From an uncultured Actinomycetota bacterium (GTDB lineage: Bacteria > Actinomycetota > Actinomycetes > JAHEKZ01), in contig CAWGPZ010000014.1 in NCBI GenBank assembly GCA_963824605.1, positions 11,263 through 75,262 on the forward strand: a stretch of DNA of 64,000 nucleotides, written 5' to 3'. The notes below the pieces were generated by a model, which was not told the DNA's origin, searched no databases, and saw only the letters and a program-made list of their open reading frames with translations. The stretch's first letter is position 1. Each line of letters starts with the position of its first letter. The position numbers were made by a program, and so were the translations under genes. Below, one piece after another: positions 34,067-35,727 of the stretch.

Positions 34067-35158
34067 ATGATCGCGCCTCGTCGAGGTAAACCGCCTCGCC
34101 ATCTCGCCGATCTCGACATGGCCGCCCGCCGTGAATGGGTCCGCGAGCTGGGCTACCCGCCCTTCCGAGCCGACCAGCTGTCGCGTCACTACTTCGAGCG
34201 CTTGGTGAACCGCGCCGATGACATGACGGACCTGCCTTCCTCCGGTCGCGGCGAGCTCGTCGGCACCGTTTTTCCCGAGCTTCTGACCCCTGTGCGCAGT
34301 CTGTCCTGCGACGACGGAGCAACGGTGAAGAACGTCGTGCGGCTCTTCGACGGGGCCATGGTCGAAAGCGTTCTCATGCGCTATCCCGGACGCACCACCA
34401 TGTGTGTCTCCTCGCAGGCAGGCTGCGGCATGAACTGCCCGTTCTGTGCGACGGGCCAGGCCGGATTGACCAGGAACATGTCGACGGCGGAGATCGTCGA
34501 ACAGGTGGTTGCTGGCGCCCGCATGCTGGCAGCCGGCGAGGTGGCCGGCGGCGCCGGCCGGGTGTCGAACGTCGTCTTCATGGGGATGGGTGAACCCCTG
34601 GCCAACTATCGATCGGTCATGGATGCAGTTCGGCGCATCACCGAGCCGACGCCCGCCGGGCTCGGCATCTCTGCTCGGTCGGTGACGGTGTCGACGGTCG
34701 GGTTGGTTCCAGCGATGGAACGTTTGACCGGCGAGGGCATACCAGTGACGCTGGCGCTGTCACTGCACGCGCCCGACGACGACCTCCGCAACACGCTCGT
34801 CCCGCTGAACACGCGGTACTCCGTCGACGAAGTGTTGGCCGCAGCATGGTCGTACGCCGACGTCACCGGGCGCCGGGTCTCGATCGAGTACGCGTTGATT
34901 CGCGACATCAATGACCAGCGCTGGCGCGCCCACCTGCTGGGTTCGATGCTCAAGAACCGACTCGTGCACGTCAACGTGATCCCGTTGAACCCCACTCCCG
35001 GATCGAAGTGGACGGCATCGACGCCCGAGGCCGAGCGCACGTTCGTGCGGACGCTCGAAGATCATGGAGTCGCGGTAACGGTTCGCGACACCCGCGGACG
35101 CGAGATCGACGGGGCGTGCGGACAGCTGGCCACTTCCACGGTGGCCGAGGAGGCCAGC
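34067..35158 (+). CDS. rlmN: 23S rRNA (adenine2503-C2)-methyltransferase RlmN (radical SAM). No in-frame stop before the downstream channel gene.
   Basis: CxxxCxx[14 protein letters not shown]-terminal GACGQL motif. The frame continues without a stop into the next feature; the end coordinate is the last codon before that gene's ATG. Confidence 0.82.
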
Positions 35159-35727
35159 ATGAGTGAGTCGCAGCAACAGCGGCAGCATCAGCCGGCGCGG
35201 CCGGCCCAGGCAGCCGATGCCCGAACTGTCGTGGCCTCTCTCGCGCGCACTGCGCTGGCAGTTGCCGCACTGCTCTTCGTGTACTTTCTCCTGCCCCTCA
35301 CCGACCGCGACAACGTCCCGGTCGGTGTTGCGGTCGTGGTGGTGGGCATGTCGGTGTTTGGGGCCATCTTTGTTCGGCAGCTTCGACAGATCCGAAAGGC
35401 GGAGTTCCCCGTGCTCAGGGCGGTCGAGGCGATCGCGCTGGTGGCGACCCTGTTCGTGGTCGTGATGGCGAGCGTCCACTACGGCATCGCCGAGACCACG
35501 CCGATTCCTACAGCGAGGTGATGAGTCGTCTTGACGCCCTGTACTTCACCGTCACCACTCTTGCCACGGTCGGCTTCGGCGACATCACGCCGACCTCGGA
35601 CGTCGCGCGGGCGGTGACCACCGTCCAGATGGTCATGGGCGTCGTGCTTCTGGGTGTCGGCGTGCGCCTCCTGGTGAGCGTCGCCCAGAAAGCAGCTGAG
35701 GAGCGCCGCGGCTCCGGAGGCCAGTAG
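35159..35727 (+). pseudogene. K+-channel-like membrane protein (TVGFGD selectivity filter). N-terminal TM part is in-frame with rlmN; the pore/C-terminal part is shifted by one frame.
   Basis: TM helices ([47 protein letters not shown]) are in rlmN's frame up to a TGA at 35516-35518. The pore helix plus filter SRLDALYFTVTTLATVGFGDITP and a further TM are in another frame (ORF 35518-35727). Junction near 35480-35515. Confidence 0.55.

Follow-up and report, generated by a model that had tools for sequence, protein, structure and literature searches.

Within the window, i.e. the whole stretch of 64,000 nucleotides that was analysed, a gene for the radical-SAM protein RlmN lies behind frr, cdsA and a TetR-family gene, and its reading frame stays open into a gene for a small K+ channel, which in turn is distributed over two frames. 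The elements of this arrangement, all on the forward strand, are the following.

33977..35521, forward strand: rlmN-bearing open reading frame of 514 aa, opening at TTG 33977 and ending at TGA 35519-35521
34067..35155, forward strand: rlmN coding region up to the first missing base (TIGR00048, Radical_SAM, RlmN_N)
35155..35156, forward strand: site 1, one base absent; near-identical contigs have a T behind 35155, giving GCC TAG
35159..35727, forward strand: K+ channel gene, 189 aa when intact; in the window present as 35159..35518 (in the rlmN frame) plus 35518..35727
35500..35503, forward strand: site 2, one base absent; near-identical contigs have a G behind 35502, giving a single channel frame
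35518..35727, forward strand: C-terminal channel open reading frame of 69 aa with pore helix, TVGFGD filter and inner helix, in the other frame

The NCBIfam profile TIGR00048 matches residues 43-393 of the long open reading frame with 324.6 bits (cut-off 290) and covers profile positions 9-351 of 355; Pfam adds Radical_SAM (E 2.6e-14) and RlmN_N, and both the radical-SAM motif CxxxCxxC (as GCGMNCPFC) and the conserved C-terminal cysteine (in GACGQL) are present. Inspection of the reading frame leaves the start uncertain, ATG 34067 being plausible and ATG 34040 being open as well; the TetR-family regulator gene (TetR_N plus TetR_C_6) occupies 33172-34050, between cdsA and rlmN. A free-standing RlmN has about 360-400 aa and ends soon after CGQL, whereas the copy in the window has 143 residues after CGQL: its frame lacks a stop behind the C-terminus, passes through ATG 35159 and continues for 120 further residues, hydrophobic in character, as a membrane tail. 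The three helices that precede the pore are consistent with the model of the intact protein (helices at residues 21-44, 53-80 and 84-113). The sequence of pore helix and filter (..SRLDALYFTVTTLATVGFGDITP..) is found in the open reading frame 35518..35727, and Pfam Ion_trans_2 is recovered on the translated stretch 35476-35724 with E 1.4e-17 and 63.7 bits against a gathering score of 22.5. A single uninterrupted frame for the channel subunit is thus not present in the window. On both points, i.e. the RlmN frame that opens into a channel-like frame without a stop and the pore helix with selectivity filter in a separate frame, the sequence-only reading made earlier of this DNA is borne out by the letters and the domain match.

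The DNA behind the channel has a feature of its own. A 17-base element (ATTGGATACAATCTCCA; window 35745-35795) is identical in all seven aligned genomes of the genus, in a spacer that is otherwise variable; it is unique in the genome from which the window derives (G000) and contains TACAAT, a possible -10 box. Behind it lies a short hairpin, the 3' arm of which overlaps GGAGG before the CoA-transferase gene (35778) and the loop of which varies between genomes. The element may be a promoter, operator or leader. A search of positions 33000-37000 against Rfam returned a single hit, to a viral element and no better than chance (E 0.44; 22 bits, with the gathering score at 90), and nothing at the spacer element.

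To see how the two sites read in related DNA, Logan contigs of four sequencing runs were placed on window positions 34800-35800, namely of X1, X2 and X4, which are DNA runs of three studies with one covering contig each at site 1, and of X15, which is an RNA library. The T behind 35155 is present in the one covering contig of each of the three DNA runs (X15 has no cover there), and the G behind 35502 is present in all four runs. The contigs of the RNA library span parts of rlmN and of the channel gene, which is not proof of transcription. One contig (X4, record 16) extends over the full 1001 bases, with nine other letters and two gaps. The contigs are about 99% like the window and differ from it by some 9 substitutions per kb, and they therefore represent close strains and not the window's own strain; the best sequencing run contained 0.77 of the sampled words, and the data compared come from sources other than the assembly's own reads.

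The alignment with the related genomes G005 and G002 likewise shows a gap of exactly one base in G000 at each of the two sites (around 35154-35158 and around 35500-35502), and the alignment with G007 shows the same one-base gap at site 2. Restoring the T changes GCC AGC into GCC TAG, which is the rlmN stop, with the channel ATG 35159 one base later and in the next frame. Site 2 is 347 bases downstream of site 1, in the stretch that connects outer helix and pore helix; neither site is a long homopolymer (CC-AG at site 1, CG-CC-GA at site 2). At the protein level, P0005 of a public protein collection (12 members on 9 contigs) is an intact channel of 189 aa that equals the two channel pieces of the window except for a Y in place of F in the filter, a difference that fits two substitutions at 35576-35577 in the near-identical contigs. 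At the filter (35575-35577) the window has TVGFGD, whereas the near-identical environmental contigs and P0005 have TVGYGD; within the channel family, F is the majority and Y the minority at this position. A programmed -1 ribosomal frameshift was considered for the second site and is not supported, as positions 35490-35510 contain no heptamer of the form X XXY YYZ and the relatives use one frame.

The wider genome context was analysed by searching the 514-aa open reading frame in 41 genomes including the window's own, 20 of which belong to one family and 21 of which were sampled at the level of the class. RlmN was matched in 39 of the 41. The channel tail (query residues of about 395-510) was found in a separate place directly behind rlmN in each of the 19 other genomes of the family, and in none of the 21 class-level genomes did this query yield a tail match adjoining rlmN (the unpublished genomes G025 and G033 enter this last statement only). 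The GTDB order contains no other family, and the channel is present in all 20 of its genomes, G000 included. In the loci that were fetched from 19 relatives, rlmN is invariably closed by a stop of its own, at a distance of 2 to about 41 codons behind CGQL, and the run-on is restricted to G000. A filter-bearing open reading frame follows rlmN in 16 of these loci, the exceptions being one locus cut by a contig end (L016) and two from other families (L019 and L020). In 12 of these 16 loci a start codon falls at -5 to +5 relative to the rlmN stop (counted from the first base of the stop), and the junction is an ATGA, GTGA or TTGA overlap, an 8-base overlap or a short spacer. The channel frame, read in all of the 19 relatives but G012, is intact in 15 of them; G008 and G013 have a damaged gene, and that of G014 is truncated by the end of its contig.

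Among the best 80 loci from 185,579 species genomes, the C-terminus of RlmN lies just upstream of the channel in eight (two of them titled Candidatus Nanopelagicales and one 'Actinobacteria bacterium') and 2.5 kb upstream in one, and no RlmN motif occurs within 3 kb in the remaining 71, which stem from Streptomyces, Kitasatospora, Rhodococcus and others. The tight placement of the channel behind rlmN is lineage-specific. In the literature, we found no paper that links rlmN with a potassium channel in actinobacteria. A fusion of RlmN with the channel was not found among 5.8 billion proteins, of which those of 282-900 aa were searched with the tail; the only match was P0121, from another assembly, in which the channel runs on into the downstream CoA-transferase. 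P0121 has 336 aa and joins a member of the channel family to a CoA-transferase III domain, probably as a run-on caused by a frame error. A natural RlmN-channel fusion is not supported, with none in 19 relatives and no RlmN-bearing match among the proteins of 282-900 aa.

The sequence-only reading had offered a genuine fusion, a lost stop and two indels as separate explanations. The latter two are supported, and together, by the one-base gaps and the restored contigs, and the first is not. A sequence that restores the rlmN stop and a single channel frame, which that reading had named as the outcome that would speak against it, is what the near-identical contigs of three studies and P0005 provide. 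It had also called a channel behind rlmN non-canonical and had suggested looking for such a gene in relatives: it is there as a separate gene in 19 of 19, so that within the order, as well as in some Nanopelagicales MAGs, the pair belongs to the regular gene order.

Single-base indel errors are known from draft and metagenome assemblies, and further broken frames occur in the same genome. Two of these lie elsewhere in the window:

19032..19544 and 19207..19803: open reading frames of lepB copy 1, frame-split near 19157 by an extra base (relative to G005 and G007)
21075..21641 and 21548..21802: open reading frames of rnhB (RNase HII), split near 21472 by a missing base

The second open reading frame of this lepB copy matches Peptidase_S26 from profile position 33 onward only, with the stretch that carries the SGSM motif between the two open reading frames, and the two rnhB open reading frames match RNase_HII positions 1-107 and 125-197; G005 is continuous in both genes. 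A second, intact lepB paralogue is found downstream at 19825..20556. A third case lies at about 56810-56820, where one base is absent behind six consecutive C and the last 40 or so codons of a long conserved open reading frame are out of frame; near 56819 both G005 and G007 are continuous against G000.

Genome-wide, seven long essential genes were examined (rpoB, rpoC, gyrA, secA, dnaE, leuS and ileS), two of which are split in G000. The rpoC gene is in two frames with the junction in the conserved ..EEDCGT.. stretch (contig C6, near 187020), and leuS is divided between two frames that adjoin at profile positions 352 and 353 (contig C2, near 21754) and gives no match above the cut-off; rpoB, gyrA, secA, both copies of dnaE and ileS are whole. 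In the relatives, leuS is in one frame in five of five, and rpoC is in one frame in three of the four in which the gene was found (G004, G007 and G016; split in G001), the gene not being found in G005, which is 69% complete. As no cell could survive the loss of both rpoC and leuS, the assembly of G000 must contain single-base errors. A gyrA paralogue of the same genome (contig C16, 52750-54932) also occupies two open frames. Frame errors occur in several assemblies of the genus, such as that in rpoC of G001 and those in xerC of G005 (L022, contig C11, about 9780-10130), a gene that is broken twice by frameshifts there and intact in G000.

In a three-way tblastn count of genome-specific frame junctions, the open reading frames of G007 gave 5 junctions in G000 and 3 in G005, those of G005 gave 11 in G000 and 6 in G007, and those of G000 gave 4 in G005 and 8 in G007, numbers that are noisy and do not cleanly separate G000 from the other two. 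The noise arises because stop-to-stop open reading frames have non-coding N-terminal extensions and because antisense frames are included, and we therefore turned to case-by-case inspection and the look-up of essential genes described above. A blastn gap census of G005 against G000 yielded 121 gap events, 96 of which are not multiples of three; on polarisation by G007, 17 were shared with G007, 8 were not and 22 had no G007 cover. As many of the events are intergenic and G007 is only about 77% identical, this census can do no more than point to candidates. A GC3 frame-switch scan of the window's contig (C14) detected site 2 and missed lepB and rnhB.

The properties of the channel itself were studied on the intact protein, the structure of which was modelled with a pLDDT of 84.7 and a pTM of 0.77. 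The model contains the following helices:

residues 21-44: N-terminal helix 1
residues 53-80: N-terminal helix 2
residues 84-113: outer helix
residues 124-135: pore helix
residues 148-186: inner helix

A filter of the form T-x-G-Y/F-G-D lies behind the pore helix and between two membrane helices (TVGFGD), and across 44 family members there is no variation at its residues T137, V138, G139, G141 and D142, nor at Y42, P46, Q74 and P84 in the N-terminal half. The extra N-terminal helices carry the conserved motifs YF.LP and Q..I....P.LRA.E; in the region of helix 2, conservation across the family is confined to Q74, I78, P84, R87, A88 and E90. The series R-x-x-R-x-x-R-K after helix 2 was considered as an S4-like voltage sensor and is not supported: its arginines are not conserved in the family, and the NCBIfam matches to Kch- and MVP-type channels are weak and far below the cut-offs. 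The orthologue of G005 matches Ion_trans_2 with E 4.8e-16 and 58.9 bits, and sequence matches to the pores of K2P, NaK, KvAP and KcsA range from E 5e-11 to 1e-6. In a fold search the best rows were all K+ channels (KirBac3.1, GsuK, KcsA and NaK among them), with an rmsd of 2.4-3.6 over about 100 columns (e.g. 2.4 over 100 columns for GsuK and 2.7-3.5 over about 105 for KirBac3.1); Foldseek gave no match at E <= 0.001. In the source databases the relatives are named 'potassium channel family protein' and 'voltage-gated potassium channel'.

The channel is an ordinary member of a widespread actinobacterial channel family, and its sequence predicts selectivity for K+. Because the channel start and the rlmN stop overlap or adjoin in the relatives, the two genes are probably co-transcribed and perhaps also translationally coupled. 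An ordinary, lineage-conserved pair of rlmN and a K+ channel gene is the real content of the locus.

As to the arrangement in the window, we consider it probable that the fusion and the split stem from two single-base assembly errors, and the two are probably not a real biological feature. The locus would then consist of two ordinary neighbours, rlmN followed by the gene for a small (189 aa) four-helix K+ channel. The first lost base would be the T of the rlmN stop TAG. As this T is missing and the channel ATG lies one base after the stop, the stop is lost and rlmN is in the frame of the channel, which would create the apparent fusion; the loss of a second base, 347 bases on, would divide the channel over two frames. 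Both losses would then have arisen in sequencing or assembly and not by mutation, and the organism itself is predicted to make an ordinary RlmN and an ordinary tetrameric K+ channel. We infer the errors from what can be observed, i.e. the gaps, the intact near-identical DNA, the conserved synteny and the other split genes.

It is rather unlikely that both deletions are real in the strain, in which case the channel would be a fresh pseudogene and RlmN would carry a three-helix tail of 120 residues that is tolerated or does mild harm. Two lesions that fall within 350 bases in a single gene of 570 bases are also what a decaying pseudogene would show, and the contigs compared are from close strains and not from the genome of the window. 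Against this, the channel is intact in every close strain that was sampled and in P0005, and this assembly also has split frames in rpoC and leuS, although no cell could live with both of these genes inactivated. The damage to the channel in G008 and G013 would fit a dispensable gene, although these two assemblies are fragmented (into about 100 and 380 contigs, respectively) and may carry errors of their own. In G008 (L011), one extra base creates a TGA at a distance of about 13 bases from site 2, and in G013 (L008), 122 bases are missing in helices 1-2, which brings the genomes of the genus with a damaged channel gene to 3 of 14 (G000, G008 and G013). The damage in G008 and G013 reflects either errors in fragmented assemblies or frequent loss of the channel in the genus.

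We attach still less credence to a reading in which the lesions are real, the rlmN-linked channel has just been lost and RlmN is tethered to the membrane by three helices, or to its milder form, in which the overlap of rlmN stop and channel start reflects a link between ribosome modification and K+ supply; this milder form is independent of the status of the lesions, the overlap being found across the order and also in some Nanopelagicales MAGs. A functional arrangement, be it a true RlmN-channel fusion or a channel produced by programmed ribosomal frameshifting at 35500, is highly improbable, since the open frame in the window, which speaks for it, stops before the pore and could not form a channel, the stretch 35490-35510 holds no slippery heptamer, neither the 19 relatives nor the collection proteins of 282-900 aa include a fusion, and relatives and near-identical strains have the channel in one frame.

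With two assembly errors as the most likely origin of fusion and split, their value as a discovery is small. The locus does hold a warning, in that the frame errors of G000 extend to rpoC and leuS and odd gene shapes in this genome, be they fusions, truncations or split genes, need to be checked against relatives or reads prior to any interpretation.

When compared with known systems, the RlmN part agrees with TIGR00048 over the whole profile, in the radical-SAM cysteines and in GACGQL, and it departs from a normal RlmN in that the copy in the window lacks a stop and has a 120-aa tail, whereas 19 of 19 relatives and the near-identical contigs end normally. The channel shares with the K+ channels of the Ion_trans_2 type (KcsA, KirBac3.1, NaK and GsuK) the succession of outer helix, pore helix, T-V-G-F/Y-G-D filter and inner helix; unlike the solved K+ channels, it has two extra N-terminal helices with no clear structural counterpart, and it is devoid of an RCK, a cyclic-nucleotide or a full voltage-sensor domain. 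The lesions, finally, resemble the indel errors of draft and metagenome assemblies in being isolated gains or losses of one base in conserved, even essential genes that are whole in close relatives, and they differ in that the two sites of the rlmN-channel locus are not long homopolymers.
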